A stretch of DNA of 64,000 nucleotides, taken from PVC group bacterium (ex Bugula neritina AB1). Lineage in GTDB: Bacteria > GCA-001730085. Both the position numbers and the translations under genes were made by a program. The DNA lies in the NCBI GenBank assembly GCA_001730085.1, contig MDLB01000104.1, positions 3,117 to 67,116 on the forward strand. The letters are read 5' to 3'. Positions 6,501 through 58,217 of this stretch are shown here, in pieces; position 1 is the stretch's first letter, and every line of letters begins with the position of its first letter. The notes below the pieces were generated by a model. The model saw only the letters and a program-made list of their open reading frames with translations. It ran no database searches and was not told the origin of the DNA.

Positions 6501-9500
6501 TTGCCTTTAACAACTTTATCTTCTGAGTATTCCAAAGATTCCAAAGAAAGAAACAGAAGTGACCTTAACCAGTCATACTGATCAACAGTCATCCAAGAAT
6601 CTTTCTTTTCATACCAGTGAGAACCCGTTGACTGATACCACTTGAACAAATTCGCACCATTCAAGGTTTTAGGGCCCCTAGCACCAGGCCTTTTCGAAAT
6701 ACCAAATTCTTTGATAACTCTTTTTAAAGCTTCCTTCTTTTTGTCCTCTAAAGAAAGTTTCTCTCCCAAGAAATCAGCAGTATACATCAAATACCAAGCA
6801 CAAGTTTTTTTATTCGCTTTCAAAACTCGTTCAAACTCTTGTTCACTCGTAAGAGAAGACCATTCATCAAAAACCGGTTCTTTAAGTCTACGATTAGCCC
6901 AATAATAATAAGCTTTCTTAAAAAAACCTTTTTTTAGACCCTCTACACGCTTAGCTTGTGCATTTTTAGCTTTATCTAGAGCCTTCTTATAATAAGATGA
7001 TTTCATGATCACATCCCGCGCACTATCCTTAGCCTCCTTAACTAGAGTAGCATCTAAAGATTTGTCTACTGTTCCCAAGTTTTCTTGAAGAGTTTTGCTC
7101 ATAGCCTTCTCAGTAAGAATAGATCTAGTGATTTCTCCTGAATAGGTTTTCTGATTTGTTTTGATCAACAAGTCATTAACTCCTAAACCTTCAATAACTT
7201 TAACAACATCTTTAATGGTAAAAGCTTCTAGCAAACTACCGGCCGAAGAAGCCTTTGCTTCTGAAACAGATCTAGAAAGTTTCAAGTCTCCATCAAGACC
7301 TTCTCGGTGTAGCCTAAAAATCTCCGCCATCTCCGCTTTTAGTCTATTGTAATTAGTATTAGAAGGCAATGCATTAACTGCACCCCAAGGATGCTGATTC
7401 TCTGTAGACAAAGTACTTGCTAACTTAGATTTTACAGTCTCACCTTGCAAAGCATCCAAAAGTTTAATAAAACTCTTTTTGGCGTCTGCAAACATCTCTT
7501 CTAAAACTTTTTGAGTACTCTTCGTATTAAGGGTAACATTTTGTACCGCTTTAGCTTTTTCATTTTGAACATTGATCAAATTTTGCTTACAATTTTTAAA
7601 AGCACTTGCCAACTCTTCTGTAAGATTTCTATAGGGTTTCAACAATTTTATCAATGACTGTATAAGTTGCCTATGAGGGGCATAAAAAGCTTCAGTAGCA
7701 ACATGAAAGTTTTGAGCTCTTTCGGCAGTAATATCATTTTGATTTATCATATGAAAAAACTTCGAAATATTTATTCTTAAGGCGTTTTGATCACCTTCAA
7801 ATAATTCAGAACTTTTAACTTTTCCATCTTTTTCATAATAAAACTTTCCATCCCACGCATCTTTCTTAAAAAACCAAAGCTCTCTGTCTGAATGAAATTT
7901 TACAGTTATTCTCTGACCCTGTTCTTCCAACGTAACTCTTAATCCCCGATCTCTACCAAGACCTTGTTGAACCTCAGACTTTCTCGCTTTATTATCACAT
8001 AAAAATAAAACTTTTTGTCGAAACTTACCTAGTCCAGACATCTCCAAGTTTGTCCCTGTAGCACCTGCCGGAAATAAATACACCGCACCTATATTCAAAC
8101 CACGTGCATTCTCAGTGAAACCGGTGGTATCTCTCATGTTAAAAATACATCCATCTTTATCTTTTAGCAGATTCCCCTTATTAAGCAATAAACCGTCTGG
8201 AACTTTTGATTTTCCACTATCTAACAAGCTCTTCGCCATATCTTGATCAATCAAGCGCGAAACAGAAAAATTAACTTGCTTTGTCGCATTATCTACCCAA
8301 GAGTGATAATCTTCCTTTAAAAACAAACGCCAGTCACCCACAAGATCTTTAACAATAACATCTTGTCCTTTTTCCCCCATCACATTTAATAAAGTTATAA
8401 GATTAGACATATCTGTGGAAATCGTATAATCAACAACCAAAAGATGACCGTTAGGTCCATTTTTATCAATAGTCATCTTTTCCACAACAGCTTTAATTTT
8501 CGTGTTAAGAGCCGCCTCTAATGCTTGGTCAATCTGAATATAATTTTCTTTTCCGCGTTCGCCTACAAGAGAATAGTCTTTACCTAAAACATCCAAAAGG
8601 ACTTTAGCAGCAATTTCTCCACCCTCTAACCTTAATTGAACAACACGTGAAGCTAAATCTAGTTTTTCAGCAGAAGATAAACTTTTACTCTTTATATAAG
8701 AAGCCTCTCTCTTGATAACTGTTAAAAGATTTTCTAGTTTTTCAATTTCAGGATAAATATAACTCTTAACAAGTTCAATATTCTCCAACCCACGAGTATC
8801 ACGATGACTCAAAGCTTTTTCTATAAAAAGTTTAGTAAAGGCTTTTAATTCTGAATTTTGCGCGCAATTGGTATCTAGAAATTTCTGAATATTTTTACCG
8901 CCTGACAAGAAAAATTGAACAATATTTTCTTTCATACTGATGATATATTCAACTTTTTTAGCTGTCATCTGTATACTTTTATCCATTTTTAACATTTCTC
9001 TCAAGGCATTTTCTATCGTTTCTTTATAAGCATGAGAAACCTTATTCTTATTCTCTACACCTTGAATAAAAGCTTCTTTCACACTTGTTTTTTCATTAAA
9101 TACCTTCATTTCACTAGAATGTAATCTTGTCAAAGGAGCTTCTGTATATTTAGCAAAAACATTACCATCTATTAAAATATCAGGTTGAGAAGTTTCCCAC
9201 GTGGAAACACCAAACTGACGTAATAAAGCAACGGAAACTTGTGTAAGAGATCCTGAAAACCCCATAAAGCTCCCACCAGCTTCTTTAATCGCTAAGAGTT
9301 GTTGAGGAATAGAAGTCGAATAGGACTCGGGTTGCAACTTGATTTGACTAGCATCATTTATAATTATTTTTGCATACTCTTTAGGATCTCTATAACCTCC
9401 TTTAGGGATTGTTGATGACAAAGTCACAAGGGCTAAACTCAAGACATGCTCAGACTCGGTGAACCTCTGATCAGGCTGTTTTTCACCACCTGTCATAGGA

Positions 9501-50536: not shown

Positions 50537-51692
50537 GTTTTAGCCTCCTGGAAATATTGGCCTTAACAACATAGTGATCTATAAGAGGAGCAAAAACATT
50601 CATAAAAAGAATGGCTAACATAACACCTTCGGGGTAAGCAGGGTTAACGGCTCTAATTAAAACAATAAGCACTCCTGTTAAAAACCCATAAATCCAACGA
50701 CCCAAAGGAGTTGCCGATGCCGAAACGGGATCGGTAGCCATAAAAATAGACCCAAAAGCAAACCCTCCCATCACACAGTGCATATGAGGAGGAATCATCA
50801 ACATAGGTGAAGATGACTTACAACAGAGCAAAATAAAGCTCATAAAAACAACACCTAAAAAACAACTCAGCATAATACGAAAACTTCCAACACCAAACAT
50901 AATGAGTAAAAAAGCCCCCATTAAACATGCCAGTGTGGAGGTCTCACCAATAGATCCAGGAATTAAACCCAAAAACATATCAATCCAAGAATATCCCGCT
51001 TGAGATAAAGCTTCTAGAGGTGTCTGACCAGCAGAAGCATTTGCAATCACAGACAAAGGTGTTGCTTTACTTATCCCATCAACAGCCAACCAAGCACTAT
51101 CTCCCGACATATTACCTGGATAGGAGAAAAAGAGAAAAACACGCGCTGTCAAAGCAGGGTTAAGAATATTCATCCCCGTCCCACCAAAAACTTCTTTTCC
51201 GATAAGAACACCAAAAAGAATACCAACAGCAACCTGCCATAAAGGAATATTCGGTGGCAAAGTTAAGGGGTACAACATCCCTGTAACCAGAAAACCTTCA
51301 TTAATTTCATGCTTTCGAACAAGAGCAAAAACAGTTTCTACCAATCCACCTACCGCATAAGAAACAAAAATAATAGGTAGAATCTGCAAGGCCCCTGTTA
51401 AGAAAGAAGGCAAAATATCTGGAGACTGCCCTGAATACTTTAACATCTGAAAACCCGTATTATACATAGCAACCAAAATACAAGGAGTTAAAGCCATAAC
51501 AACGATAGACATCGTTCTTTTAAGGTCAACAGAGTCTCTAACAAAAGGAGCTTTTCTTGCTTTCCTAGCTGGACTAAGCAAAAAGGTATCTGCAGCTTCA
51601 AAAAGCGGATACAAAAATTCAAATTTTGAACCTTTCTTGAAAAGTTTACCTATTTTATCGAGTTTTTTTTCTAAAAATTTCATATAAATCAA
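50529..51692 (-). CDS. nqrB: Na+-NQR subunit B
   Basis: 387 aa polytopic membrane protein. Overlaps nqrA by 4 nt and nqrC by 8 nt. Confidence 0.85.
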   Translation of the reverse strand: MIYMKFLEKKLDKIGKLFKKGSKFEFLYPLFEAADTFLLSPARKARKAPFVRDSVDLKRTMSIVVMALTPCILVAMYNTGFQMLKYSGQSPDILPSFLTGALQILPIIFVSYAVGGLVETVFALVRKHEINEGFLVTGMLYPLTLPPNIPLWQVAVGILFGVLIGKEVFGGTGMNILNPALTARVFLFFSYPGNMSGDSAWLAVDGISKATPLSVIANASAGQTPLEALSQAGYSWIDMFLGLIPGSIGETSTLACLMGAFLLIMFGVGSFRIMLSCFLGVVFMSFILLCCKSSSPMLMIPPHMHCVMGGFAFGSIFMATDPVSASATPLGRWIYGFLTGVLIVLIRAVNPAYPEGVMLAILFMNVFAPLIDHYVVKANISRRLKRA

Positions 51693-53044
51693 CCCTCTTT
51701 TTCAATAGAATCAAGACCATGAGCAATAATCCCCATAACATCCGTTTTAGAGGGACAAGCAAATGAGGCCAAAGCAAAGTCTTCCGGATCACATTCTAGC
51801 AACCCTAACGATTCTGCCTCATCCCATTGCTCGGCTAAAATAGCCTTGATTAGAAAATACGTATAAATATCCAAGGAAATATACTGATCATAAACATCAT
51901 TCATGACAATCGCACGATCACTTCCATTAATAGAAGAATCTAAAGAGACGTCATTTCTAGGAAGAAAACCACCTAAGTAAGCCTTAGAAAAAGTATACTC
52001 ACCCAAGCCTAATCTGAAAAATCTAAGTAATTTTCTTTGAGGTTTATCTGGCAAAAGATGAACTTGTGAATGATAGTATCGAACAAATCCATTCTCTTCA
52101 ATATTAGAACCATTCAAGACACTTCCAGATATATACAATAAATCTTCTTTTTGAAGAGAAGTCTCTCCATCTTTTACAATGTCAGAAATGGAAACACCTA
52201 TATGCGTTCCAATATATCTTCTTTTCTCTTCAACAACACCTTCTCCTGTCAAAGCTATTACCTTGTTTGAATAAAAACGACCTTCTTTTGCAAAAAAACC
52301 TAGGCGCAAAACATCTTGAGCATCGATATAGGCTATAACCTCTTTTTTTCTCAAAGGGTCAATTTGACTAACAAAAGTACTAATATTTCCAGCAGGATGA
52401 GGTCCGGCAAAAGTATGATGCTCAACCCCTTCTGATTTACGCAAAACTTTGGATTCAGTATCAGCAGCATAACAGAGATGAACCTTACCATCTGTAAGCT
52501 TATTCAGAACATCCAATCCAGCTTGAAAAAGATCTCTTTTTCCCTCAACAACAATACCAAGGTCAAGGGCTAGGGGCTCAGTATTTAAAGCCTTAACAAA
52601 AATAGACTTGGGCTCAACCTGAGGATCTAAAATCTTAGAAAATGGTCTCTGACGTATAAATGCCCAAAGACCTGATTTTTGTAGAGCATCAACCCAGTCT
52701 TTACGAGAGCTTTCAGCAGAAAGAATCTCACTACGAACCTCTTCAGCATCAGGATTAACATCAATAACGACATTAATCAAAACCCTTTTCTCACCTCTAT
52801 TGATCGCCTTTATAGATCCACCCAGGGGAGCAACAATAACAGTCGCAGTTCCATTTTTATCCTCAAAAAGAGGATCTCCCTTTTTAATTGTCTGACCTAC
52901 TTTAACAAGAAGACGAGGCTTAATACCCTTAAAATCTTCCGGGTGAATAGCAAGAGATGCAGGATATCCTCGATCATCTATGGTGGCAGAAGGTGATCCC
53001 TTTACCTTTATATTTTTACCTTTTTTGATCACAAAATAAGACAT
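51689..53044 (-). CDS. nqrA: Na+-NQR subunit A
   Basis: 451 aa soluble subunit (MSYFVIKKGKNIKVKGSPSATID...). First gene of a contiguous nqrABCDEF set. Confidence 0.85.
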   Translation of the reverse strand: MSYFVIKKGKNIKVKGSPSATIDDRGYPASLAIHPEDFKGIKPRLLVKVGQTIKKGDPLFEDKNGTATVIVAPLGGSIKAINRGEKRVLINVVIDVNPDAEEVRSEILSAESSRKDWVDALQKSGLWAFIRQRPFSKILDPQVEPKSIFVKALNTEPLALDLGIVVEGKRDLFQAGLDVLNKLTDGKVHLCYAADTESKVLRKSEGVEHHTFAGPHPAGNISTFVSQIDPLRKKEVIAYIDAQDVLRLGFFAKEGRFYSNKVIALTGEGVVEEKRRYIGTHIGVSISDIVKDGETSLQKEDLLYISGSVLNGSNIEENGFVRYYHSQVHLLPDKPQRKLLRFFRLGLGEYTFSKAYLGGFLPRNDVSLDSSINGSDRAIVMNDVYDQYISLDIYTYFLIKAILAEQWDEAESLGLLECDPEDFALASFACPSKTDVMGIIAHGLDSIEKEG

Positions 53045-53648
53045 AAAATGTGTACACCCTAATACGTTTTTAAGAATTCAACAATAGCTTCACATTAACC
53101 TTTAAATAATAAAACCCACGTCCTTGAATTAAGTTCAAAGATGCGAGGGCTTCATTGCTTAAAAGTCAAACATAAAACTATGACATCAGCGAAAGAATTT
53201 TTTCGCTATAAAAGTCTAAACATAATGATACTTTACAATTAAAAAAAAGTCATTCTCTAATCTAAATCAAAGAAATCAAGCACAAAGCTTGAACTTTTAG
53301 AAATGATATTTCAAATTAATTATTGAAAGATATCGTGGATAAGTTATTCTAACACAAAAACTTTAAATCTCAACTACGCTTTTTTAAAAAAGTAAAAAAT
53401 GATTAAACTTTTCACGAATTCTTACTATGAAAAACTAAATCATTTACTAACTAAAAAATTCTTTTTAAGATCAAAAACTCTTTTATAACTAAAGTTATTA
53501 TTTTAAAATAACTTAAAAAAGCCTCTTAAATGTTTCCTTGAGCTCCTTTCAAAATATCGAATAAGATTTCTTAATCATTATGTCTATAAAAGAATCTGCC
53601 CTTTTTAAATATAAAGAATCCCTCGATAAGAATATGAGTTTTTCTTCA

Positions 53649-53657
53649 CCCCCCCCC
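53649..53657. repeat. C9 homopolymer tract in an AT-rich non-coding spacer
   Basis: Read directly (tttcttcaCCCCCCCCCtaaagcc). The only long G/C homopolymer in non-coding DNA of this window. Confidence 0.6.
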
Positions 53658-53979
53658 TAAAGCCTATTCCTCGAAAAAACATACACTATATTTGAACATT
53701 TAAATATCTATATGATTTTTTTACAAAGCACAAAGAAACATGTGATTTTTTCTCAAAAAAATTCTATTTGGAAGTTTTCAAAGTACTGAATAATTTTTTA
53801 TTCGTTCTTTTAAAAAAATTATCATTTTAAGGGTTACAAAAGGGGCGACAAAAAAATGAACAGTTATACAAATCACTTTAATTAAAGAATAAATACTATT
53901 TAAAAAAAAATTACTAATAATTTAAAATGTAATTTTAAAAATTAATATTGAAAAATAAAGAAGCAAAGAAATATATAAT

Positions 53980-54037
53980 GAGAGCTAACCCAGTAAATTG
54001 GGGGTTTACTGGGTGTACTTGCGTACATTCAGCTCTC
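53980..54037. ncRNA. Candidate small structured RNA or structured DNA site. It is a 58-nt element with three perfect stems, GC-richer than its surroundings.
   Basis: Closing stem GAGAGCT...AGCTCTC (53980-86 / 54031-37). Hairpin 1 is CCCAGTAAA-ttggggg-TTTACTGGG (53989-54013). Hairpin 2 is TGTAC-ttgc-GTACA (54014-54027). All three were read directly from the sequence. Confidence 0.3.
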
Positions 54038-54310
54038 ATGTGTGCTTTGAGGGTTCTTTTAAAAAAACTGTTTTAAAAATCTTATTATAATTCAAACCCG
54101 TCTAAAGTAGTAAACATATAATAACCTTCTTTTTTAAACTTGTCAAGCATTATTTTATTATTTTAAAATGATTTAAAAAACGAAATTACATTTCATTTTT
54201 AAATTTAAAAAGATCTTCTTTGTAAAGAAAAAAAATATCAAATAAAGACAAATTCTCTTTACTTTAAAATCTTCATTATTACCAACTAAAAAAAATAAAG
54301 AATTCGTAAA

Positions 54311-54348
54311 AGAGCGAAAGAGCGAAAGAGCGAAAGAGCGAAAGAGCA
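54311..54348. repeat. Tandem octamer (AGAGCGAA) x4.75
   Basis: Read directly. It lies 48 bp downstream of the GNAT gene stop. Confidence 0.7.
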
Positions 54349-54395
54349 CAATAAATCTCTAATTATTAGGAATATTTGCTTTAAATGCCTTTTTT

Positions 54396-54878
54396 CTATG
54401 CAAGCTTCTTCTGTAAAATCAACACTGAACGATTTACAGCTATTTCAAAACTTTTTTTCTCTGAAAAACCTACCTTTAAAGCTAAAGAGACCATTGCGAG
54501 CATATCATCCGTACAACGCAACTCTATACTTTTGAAACCCTTTTTTCTTGCCACACCTAAAATATGCGACATCAAACGCATACCATAGCCTCTTTTTTGG
54601 TAATTCTTGGAAACAAAACATCTTCTAACAAGAGCAACATCCCCAAAATCTTCTTTTAAAGCTATCGTTCCAAAAATCTCTAACTCATCATGATCTTCAA
54701 TAACAGCAAACGTATCCCTACCTTGACAATAAGACATATAAATATCTTCCAAATCCTCGTAACGAAAGGGTCTCAATCTCTTTGCTTTATCAAAACTTTT
54801 TTCATTAATACTTTTTATCAAAGCTAAAACTATTGATTGGTCTTCTTTTTTAAAATCCCTAATAATCATCACACACAA
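54396..54878 (-). CDS. GNAT-family N-acetyltransferase
   Basis: 160 aa. Acetyl-CoA binding motif A region RRCFVSKNYQKRGYGMRLMSHIL, which fits the R/Q-x-x-G-x-G/A pattern. Confidence 0.6.
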   Translation of the reverse strand: MCVMIIRDFKKEDQSIVLALIKSINEKSFDKAKRLRPFRYEDLEDIYMSYCQGRDTFAVIEDHDELEIFGTIALKEDFGDVALVRRCFVSKNYQKRGYGMRLMSHILGVARKKGFKSIELRCTDDMLAMVSLALKVGFSEKKSFEIAVNRSVLILQKKLA

Positions 54879-55128: not shown

Positions 55129-55201
55129 TGGAGCTGGGGGGGCTCGAACCCCCGACCTTCTGAATGCCATTCAGACGCGCTTCCAACTGCGCCACAGCCC
55201 C
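55129..55201 (-). tRNA. tRNA-Ala (anticodon GGC), CCA not encoded
   Basis: Folded by hand as GGGGCUG-UG-GCGC-AGUUGGAA-GCGC-G-UCUGA-AUGGCAU-UCAGA-AGGUC-GGGGG-UUCGAGC-CCCCC-CAGCUCC-A. It has a G3:U70 wobble, the Ala identity element. The anticodon loop is U33-GGC-A37. The T-loop is TTCGAGC. Confidence 0.85.
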
Positions 55202-56828: not shown

Positions 56829-58217
56829 CTATGAGCAAGAAAAAGAGTCTTCTATAAGCTCAAGAAGACGTTTATTCTCAGCTTCTATCAACAAAATTTT
56901 CTGATCTCTCATACGAATATCTAACAGCAAAGAGTCTTGATCATTTAGAATTTTGTCATCTTTCTTCTGAATCAAGTTCACCTCATCTACCTTTTGATGC
57001 TTCTCAAAGACAGAAATCATCTCATCAATGCTACCTCTAGAAAGAGGTTTGGTTGAATCATTTTTAAAAACAATTGATTGACCCAAATAAGAAGTCTCTC
57101 TTAGATGATTTTTCCATTTTGAGCTTTTTTGTGACTTCATTGTAAGCTTCTTATAAAGCTCTCTATTTTCTTCTTTTAATTTTTTATTTTCATCTAAAAG
57201 TCTCTCTTCAAAAACCCTGGAAACATTTTCAGCACCAGCACTTTTCATATCTACAGAAAGTTGCTTACATTTACCTGATAAAATTTTTATCTTCCTCTGA
57301 CAAAGTCCAACCATCTTCTCAACTTGATCTTTATTACGTTGCATTTTCTCTCTATGCAAAACTGAATTTTCCAATAAATCTTTCATGCTTTGAATTTTTT
57401 TACGCAAACCCTCATGTTCATTTGTTTGATAAGACCCAAGAGCACCGAAAGAATCTTTCTTTTTATTCAAAGACATAAATGAAAAAGTCTTTTTACAAAA
57501 AAGCTGCTGAAACCTTTCGGTATCAAAAGATATTTTGTCAAAAGAACCGCCTTTGCCTACAAAAAGTTTTTTCTTCGCCAAAACTTTTTCATATTCCTTT
57601 AATTTCTCCTGTAACTTTATAATATTTTTATCTTTTTCCATCAAATGCTTTTCAAAATCACCCGCCAACCGTTTCTCTAACAAAAAAATTTCTTGATTAA
57701 GCTTACGTATGTGTCGATTATAAAGCTTCGCTTCAGATTCATAATGAAACATCTGTCTTCTCATTTGATCATTAAGCTTATCCAAATATTTAAGCTTAGA
57801 TTTTAAAGAGGTTTCATCATTAAAAAGCTCTTCCTGGTGCAGATTTTTCACTATTTTTGAAACATCTTGATTTTTAGATGTCGTTTCAGTTGAAATATTT
57901 TTTTTTGGATCAATCTTAGAAGGAAAAACTCCAACCTTATAAGGTGTCTTAGGATAGTTTTTTTTCATCGAAAAGCTTTTGGATAACATAGGAAAGTCTG
58001 TGAACTCAACTTTTTTTCTAGCACGAACATTTTTATAAACAACCTTAGGGTCAAAAGATATTTTTCTTAAATCATTATTCATATTTTTAGAAATATCTCG
58101 GAAAGATTTTGGCACACAAAAATCAGATATAAGGCGATTCAAAGCCTCTGAAGAAAAAAGATCTTCACTAGATGCAACAACAGACAGAATCAATGCACAA
58201 AAACACACAAACCTCAT
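56829..58217 (-). CDS. Secreted coiled-coil protein (hypothetical)
   Basis: 462 aa. Signal peptide (MRFVCFCALILSVVASS), then long K/E/L-rich heptad-like stretches. A strong GGGGGGAGAAA RBS lies upstream. Confidence 0.5.
   Translation of the reverse strand: MRFVCFCALILSVVASSEDLFSSEALNRLISDFCVPKSFRDISKNMNNDLRKISFDPKVVYKNVRARKKVEFTDFPMLSKSFSMKKNYPKTPYKVGVFPSKIDPKKNISTETTSKNQDVSKIVKNLHQEELFNDETSLKSKLKYLDKLNDQMRRQMFHYESEAKLYNRHIRKLNQEIFLLEKRLAGDFEKHLMEKDKNIIKLQEKLKEYEKVLAKKKLFVGKGGSFDKISFDTERFQQLFCKKTFSFMSLNKKKDSFGALGSYQTNEHEGLRKKIQSMKDLLENSVLHREKMQRNKDQVEKMVGLCQRKIKILSGKCKQLSVDMKSAGAENVSRVFEERLLDENKKLKEENRELYKKLTMKSQKSSKWKNHLRETSYLGQSIVFKNDSTKPLSRGSIDEMISVFEKHQKVDEVNLIQKKDDKILNDQDSLLLDIRMRDQKILLIEAENKRLLELIEDSFSCS

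Follow-up and report, generated by a model that had tools for sequence, protein, structure and literature searches.

A probable small structured RNA gene in the spacer upstream of nqrA in a bacterium of candidate division NPL-UPA2

A window of 64,000 nucleotides (nt) from the genome of PVC group bacterium (ex Bugula neritina AB1) (GenBank assembly GCA_001730085.1, contig MDLB01000104.1, positions 3,117 to 67,116 of the forward strand) was analysed, and all coordinates given below refer to this 64-kb stretch. The NqrA encoded in the window matches that of this bacterium at 100% identity. The host is the AB1_div genome, which is placed in candidate division NPL-UPA2 and not in the Chlamydiae (PMC5041132). 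The spacer (53045-54395, 1351 nt) between nqrA (51689-53044, minus strand) and the GNAT acetyltransferase gene upstream of it (54396-54878, minus strand) includes a compact three-stem island at 53980-54037, which probably forms the 3' domain of a small RNA gene that is autonomous, present in one copy and located on the minus strand. As judged from the sequence, this is a small structured RNA gene that was previously undescribed and has a narrow distribution, and its predicted transcript would run from approximately 54111 to approximately 53950, some 135-165 nt. That the element is a functional structured RNA can be stated with high confidence and that it is an autonomous gene of the minus strand with good confidence; confidence in the mechanism proposed below is low.

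The three stems noticed in the first-pass annotation were recovered as written, the third being counted as 4-5 bp. Stem 1 (P1) is formed by GAGAGCT (53980-53986) and AGCTCTC (54031-54037), stem 2 (P2) by CCCAGTAAA (53989-53997) and TTTACTGGG (54005-54013), and stem 3 (P3) by (T)GTAC (54014-54018) and GTAC(A) (54023-54027). The minimum-energy fold of 53980-54037 is a three-way junction on either strand, at -29.9 kcal/mol (z -5.3) for the plus strand and -29.7 kcal/mol (z -7.8) for the minus strand. None of 200 shuffled sequences folded as well, and the stem-2 pattern occurs once in the window with 0 occurrences expected, in agreement with the earlier view that stems of this kind are unlikely by chance. 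On the minus strand, the junction P1/P2/P3 was defined both by the fold and by comparison of five species. P1 comprises 7-9 bp and is invariant among species, P2 has 9 bp and a 7-nt loop, and P3 is a hairpin with the loop GCAA.

The island is real, but it forms only the 3' domain of a larger minus-strand unit (~53950-54146), which also has a fourth hairpin and a promoter. The additional 5' hairpin, P4 (54045-54107, minus strand), is formed by pairing of CUUUAGACGGGUU with AACCCUCAAAG and has two bulges and a U-rich apical region. It was partly misaligned in the window by MAFFT and by the covariance model, and its coordinates were taken from the window's own fold. An unpaired linker, CACACAU (54038-54044, minus strand), separates P4 from the junction and is invariant save for one U to C change in L015. 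The junction is followed by a U-rich tail, AUUAUAUAUUUCUUUGCUUCUUUAUUUUUC (53950-53979, minus strand), in which the 3' end of the RNA probably lies.

The comparison included the window and four relatives that have the RNA, all of them uncultured: L002 (also L011), L008, L015 and L017. Their NqrA proteins are 60%, 57% and 50% identical to that of the window in L002, L008 and L015, respectively, and none is known for L017, which was located via a profile search with an alignment of three GNAT sequences; a protein search with the window GNAT alone matched only itself. The closest NqrA relatives are 50-60% identical, and the next, from Omnitrophota, ~47%. The gene neighbourhood of the element is the same in all five species, and the metagenome-assembled genome (MAG) L002 keeps the GNAT-nqrA order. 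In L002, a 77-nt stretch is 93.5% identical to positions 53979-54055 of the window, and the remainder of the spacer does not align. The element and a tRNA gene (93.2%) are the two best-conserved segments in the comparison of the window with L002, as compared with 68-74% identity in coding DNA.

An alignment of orthologous spacers, which had been proposed as a check, revealed the element with compensatory base changes in all four relatives and so bore out the suggestion of a small RNA or riboregulator. P2 is CCCAGTAAA/TTTACTGGG in the window and L002 and takes the compensated forms CTCGGCAAA/TTTGCCGAG in L008 and CCCGATAAA/TTTATCGGG in L017, while the L015 form, CCCGGAGAA/TTCACCGGG, has one mismatch. 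Likewise, the P3 pairing GTAC/GTAC is replaced by GTG/CAC in L015. The fourth helix was found beside the junction in each of the five species. All five share an unchanged 3' arm of P4, AAACCCUCAAAG, whereas the 5' arm and distal part of P4 vary and covary; the 5' arm is the least conserved part of the RNA, with bulging in the window, mismatching in L002 and L015, and five fewer pairs in L017.

In the model-based alignment of the five sequences, standard pairs occupy 93.7% of the pair cells, and 11 base pairs, including five of the nine in P2, have changed on both sides with pairing kept. Neither covariation value was reached in any of 500 shuffles, and slid controls paired at only 24-45%. The same four helices were predicted independently by RNAalifold, and a covariance model built from the four relatives matched the window at 83.8 bits (E ~1e-18). 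Omnitrophota-type GNAT loci and more distant NqrA loci had neither the spacer nor the element, and the L009 contig (NqrA 55% identical) ends 127 nt upstream of the gene and is too short to show it.

A promoter with 11 of 12 consensus matches precedes P4 on the minus strand. Its -35 box, TTGACA (54141-54146), and -10 box, TATTAT (54118-54123), are separated by 17 nt, and the usual 7-nt distance would place the transcription start at about A54111. The pattern TTGACA-N17-TAnnnT occurs only once on both strands of the 64-kb window, at 54146-54118 (minus strand), and once each in L002 (21 kb), L008 and L015. In these four species, the promoter precedes P4 by 5-31 nt and is on the strand in which P4, linker and junction follow one another in this order. 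Its unique occurrence upstream of P4 therefore fixes the transcribed strand as minus. In the window and L002, no more than ~5 nt separate the predicted transcription start from P4; in L008 (128-165, RNA strand) and L015 (558-590, RNA strand), 22-31 nt lie between the -10 box and P4 and can form an extra small 5' hairpin.

The element sequence, as read in the plus strand of the window, runs in the direction of the GNAT gene in the relatives but opposite to GNAT and nqrA in the window. As the identical sequence lies on the opposite strand relative to these genes, the element is inverted in the window. An independent Logan assembly, L001, is identical to the window over 1294 nt upstream of nqrA, with the element included in the same orientation. 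Promoter and RNA were inverted as one block, in which all stems are intact and around which every flanking base has diverged. Survival of the inverted block indicates a unit that works independently of the orientation of its neighbours. Furthermore, in the three relatives whose contig reaches nqrA (L002, L008 and L015), a separate strong nqrA promoter is present between the element and nqrA (TTGACC-N17-TGaTAGAAT in L002 and L008, and TTGACG-N18-TGaTACTAT in L015), and hence the RNA does not belong to the nqrA leader. In these species, it is divergent from nqrA, with back-to-back promoters whose -35 boxes are ~55-160 nt apart.

Transcription from the plus strand was considered as an alternative, in which the element would be a structured 3' untranslated region (UTR) of the GNAT mRNA, or a product processed from it, or else a far-upstream leader or riboswitch-like element of nqr. 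Its position fits such an origin: in all four relatives, 13-21 nt separate the GNAT stop codon from the start of the element, which lies on the GNAT strand, and riboswitch candidates with a structured RNA upstream of nqrA are known (PMC11109978). However, in the window the element is fully conserved although inverted with respect to both GNAT and nqrA, so that cis action on either gene is not available there. The plus strand folds equally well, and three positions of P4 that are not Watson-Crick pairs would be G-U on the plus strand and A-C on the minus strand, but the minus strand is favoured by other wobbles, the window's P1 pair 73-116 and, in L015, the P3 pair 80-85 that closes a UUCG loop. 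No conserved promoter was found on the plus strand, where the best matches are only 6-9 of 12, whereas the other strand has the unique TTGACA-N17-TAnnnT in four species. The plus strand also lacks a U tract after P4 or P1, and the strong nqrA promoter of L002, L008 and L015 is downstream of the element. Taken together, an origin from the plus strand is unlikely, though it is the best of the alternatives.

The nqrA motif of Marinomonas and the nqrA-II motif of Pasteurellaceae are riboswitch candidates that form 5' leaders, directly before the nqrA start codon and in the orientation of the gene (PMC11109978). The element resembles them in having several covarying stems beside nqrA, and the nqrA-II motif also has four stems (PMC11109978). 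Unlike these motifs, the element is 935 nt (window) or 230-390 nt (relatives) away from nqrA, is separated from it by a distinct nqrA promoter, has its own promoter on the opposite strand, pointing away from nqrA, in L002, L008 and L015, and gives no Rfam match. As judged by position and by Rfam, the element is not a member of either candidate class.

A function at the DNA level, as a cruciform-forming site for protein binding or recombination or as a bidirectional terminator with selection acting on DNA hairpins, had been offered in the first-pass annotation in the form of a structured recombination or binding site. The near-equal folding of the two strands and wobble statistics that choose no strand would be expected of such an element, which is also intergenic; its inversion in the window is a possible hint of recombination activity. 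The inverted promoter-plus-RNA block is bracketed by AT-rich inverted repeats of 16 nt (53930-53945 and 54192-54207, 88% complementary), which could be the footprint of the inversion, but repeats so short and low in complexity are common and pair easily by chance. The element is present in a single copy with the same neighbourhood in five species, and no recombinase or mobile-element gene was found nearby. A three-way junction with a second hairpin, invariant loops and a conserved promoter is typical of an RNA gene. The plus strand has no U tract after any stem, and a U run directly follows P1 on the minus strand in only two of the five species, which speaks against the element being an intrinsic terminator. 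A DNA-level function is thus very unlikely.

A small-protein gene was judged highly improbable. ORFs (open reading frames) span the element on both strands, one of 42 aa on the plus strand (53948-54076) and one of 34 aa on the minus strand (53935-54039) starting with MRA, and four of the five species have the minus-strand ATG, in CACAUGAGAGC. Both candidate starts are lost in L015, which has ACG in place of this ATG and a TAA stop followed by AAG in the plus frame. The paired substitutions in the stems alter amino acids (e.g. PV...TG to SA...AE), the ends and lengths of the ORFs differ in every species, and neither start is preceded by a Shine-Dalgarno sequence. A chance structure or a selfish repeat of the repetitive extragenic palindromic (REP) or miniature inverted-repeat transposable element (MITE) type can practically be discarded, since, even though AT-rich spacers are rich in chance inverted repeats, the shuffling result, the covariation in five species, the single copy and the rarity of the sequence among species genomes all speak against it.

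The assignment to an autonomous minus-strand RNA gene has several weaknesses. In L017, the 58 nt available beyond P4 before the contig ends hold no clean TTGACA promoter, only a weak match. Counts of G-U versus A-C pairs tie between the strands, so the promoter is the sole basis of the strand call. The 3' end is placed only loosely, as a U run directly follows P1 only in the window and L015, and L002, L008 and L017 have an A run (A6-7) followed by U-rich sequence; a terminator scan flagged nothing at the 3' end of the RNA in the window. Transcript, ends and abundance are all predicted. The small number of species known, five, limits the covariation statistics, and no conserved specific target of the C-rich motifs described below was found among ~50 start regions scanned, in which only generic Shine-Dalgarno-like matches were seen.

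The RNA is single-copy in the window, as assessed with the covariance model with filters off. A search of 185,579 species genomes gave one exact match, to a MAG already in the comparison set. No match was obtained in a scan of viral contigs, and in pattern scans of metagenome contigs the loop pattern had no match and the tail pattern had three, all attributable to chance. Repeated or mobile elements of the REP, MITE or attC type were rejected, given one copy and a fixed neighbourhood in five species.

Rfam 15 comprises 4227 models, including those for RsaE, SRP, 6S, tmRNA, RNase P, small ribozymes and riboswitches. At the gathering threshold, only the tRNA at 55129-55201 was matched in the window, and with E values up to 10 the region 52900-54500 gave only chance-level matches of 13-21 bits; the element of L008, L015 and L017 likewise matched nothing. 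Hammerhead, twister and other ribozymes, SRP, 6S and tmRNA were rejected, as their core motifs are lacking and no Rfam match was obtained. The negative outcome of the Rfam scan had been put forward as evidence against an RNA if combined with an unconserved spacer, but the element in the spacer is conserved; the lack of a match amid conservation means that the RNA is undescribed, not absent.

Two C-rich motifs are invariant, UAAACCCUCAA in the 3' arm of P4 and UAAACCCCCAA comprising the P2 loop and its closing pairs, and these differ from one another by one base. The loop itself is CCCCCAA across species and UCCCCAA in L017. The linker CACACAU lies a few nt downstream of UAAACCCUCAA, and AAACCCUCAAAGCACACA(U/C) shows no other variation among the five species, although the stems adjoining it covary. 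Invariance of the motifs while the surrounding stems change fits sequence-specific contacts with an outside partner. The RNA would act in trans and is probably a regulatory RNA that uses these two motifs, with UAAACCCUCAA and UAAACCCCCAA as putative contact surfaces. Most simply, they could pair with G-rich Shine-Dalgarno regions of target mRNAs and block translation, and the variable 5' arm of P4 may serve as a partial lid on the first motif.

The generic matches in the target scan include UUGAGGAG in the nqrD start region of the window and L002, and UUUUGGGGGGAG before the ORF at 56829-58217, a perfect 7-nt complement of the P2 loop. The latter ORF (minus strand, 462 aa) has no Pfam match, and its match was the best of this small scan but is not statistically meaningful. 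Whole-RNA duplex prediction against nqrA start regions gave long spurious duplexes no better than those of shuffled sequences. From its constant place beside nqr, the RNA may be linked to respiration or to sodium/redox balance; this place and the back-to-back promoters of three relatives also hint that it is co-regulated with, or belongs to the same physiology as, respiration by Na+-NQR.

RoxS/RsaE of Firmicutes (RsaE in Rfam) is a trans-acting small RNA (sRNA) with repeated C-rich motifs that is tied to respiration and NADH balance. Both RNAs are 100-170 nt long (the present one by prediction), have their own promoter and carry at least two near-identical C-rich motifs in loops or linkers able to pair with G-rich Shine-Dalgarno regions, and the RNA described here lies beside the operon for an NADH:quinone oxidoreductase. 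However, the two share no sequence or model similarity (no Rfam match at E up to 10), and the present RNA has a three-way junction and a long hairpin and comes from another phylum; the resemblance may thus be taken as functional speculation.

In the Enterobacteria, sRNA genes such as micF/ompC, oxyS/oxyR, gcvB/gcvA and sgrS/sgrR are located back to back with a neighbour in a shared intergenic region, usually with shared control or a functional link. The back-to-back promoters of L002, L008 and L015 resemble this arrangement, but there is no homology and no adjacent regulator gene, and in the window the arrangement was made tandem by the inversion. IhtA and other chlamydial sRNAs are, similarly, small regulatory RNAs of the PVC superphylum, but no Rfam match to any chlamydial sRNA family was obtained, and the host belongs to NPL-UPA2.

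The spacer as a whole (53045-54395, no strand assigned) is an AT-rich region free of ORFs of at least 60 aa, as had been described in the first-pass annotation. Its GC content is 0.17-0.30, as compared with 0.32-0.43 in the flanking genes, and no other gap in the window is as long, the next being ~450 nt. The orthologous spacers of L002 and L015 measure 327 and 463 nt, respectively, and the window spacer is ~1 kb longer than those of the relatives, the excess being AT-rich DNA. A pseudogene remnant as the origin of the extra 1 kb is unsupported, given 26-46 stop codons in each of the six reading frames and no Pfam match in any of them at E up to 1.

Shortly past the GNAT stop codon, at 54309-54347, is a perfect tandem repeat, (AAAGAGCG) x 4.9, within which the Logan contig L001 ends; short-read assembly therefore breaks there. 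The repeated motifs reported near 53497 and 54161 proved to be copies of a 26-nt AT-rich direct repeat, TTATTATTTTAAAATRAYTTAAAAAA, at 53495-53520 and 54155-54180, which are 92% identical. Copy 2 lies at about -44 to -69 of the predicted RNA start and overlaps the expected UP-element position of the RNA promoter, as judged by position only. Beside copy 1, neither a convincing promoter nor, using blastn and the covariance model, a second, decayed copy of the RNA was found.

A candidate nqrA promoter in the window, TTGAGA-N16-(TGt)TAGAAT (53346-53373, minus strand), has 10 of 12 consensus matches with the TG present, and its -10 hexamer TAGAAT is common to the nqrA promoters of L002 and L008. 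Transcripts from it would have a 5' UTR of unusual length, ~295 nt. This candidate leader holds a small terminator-like hairpin (53292-53276) and a long imperfect hairpin of ~45 bp (53080-53185, minus strand; fold z -7.2 and -5.9), which has a GC-rich top and precedes UUUUAUUAUUU. The long hairpin, whose end lies ~50 nt ahead of the nqrA ATG, resembles a terminator or attenuator of the nqrA leader. Only the window has it, the nqrA leaders of L002, L008 and L015 being short and lacking it.

All genes of at least 100 aa in the window lie on the minus strand. The GC skew is negative across the profiled 50-58 kb stretch, and the window appears to be one long co-oriented stretch. Nearly half of it is filled by a single ORF (3596-32596, minus strand) for a giant protein of 9666 aa (29 kb). 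The tRNA gene at 55129-55201 (minus strand, 64.6 bits) sits between recA and the GNAT gene and is 93% identical to the L002 tRNA at 7978-8051. The gene order is recA-tRNA-GNAT in the window, as compared with UvrD, an 81-aa ORF, a T2SSE-family gene and GNAT in L002.

Beyond the assignment itself, it is possible, though doubtful, that the RNA is the first known of a class of structured regulatory RNAs, as yet undescribed, in NPL-UPA2 and its relatives, coupled to Na+-NQR (e.g. redox- or sodium-responsive), with a junction that binds a protein or small ligand and C-rich motifs that engage ribosome-binding sites. On this view, the invariant junction is too conserved for a mere scaffold. Almost nothing is known of the RNA regulators of uncultured PVC-related lineages. 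The candidate offers a promoter, a structure supported by covariation, conservation at the level of a tRNA and a constant partner in the nqr operon, and hence a testable hypothesis. The inversion in the window acts like a natural experiment, in which the block remained intact when turned, as would a self-contained gene. The covariance model and its five seed sequences may define a new RNA family and could be used to annotate further genomes.

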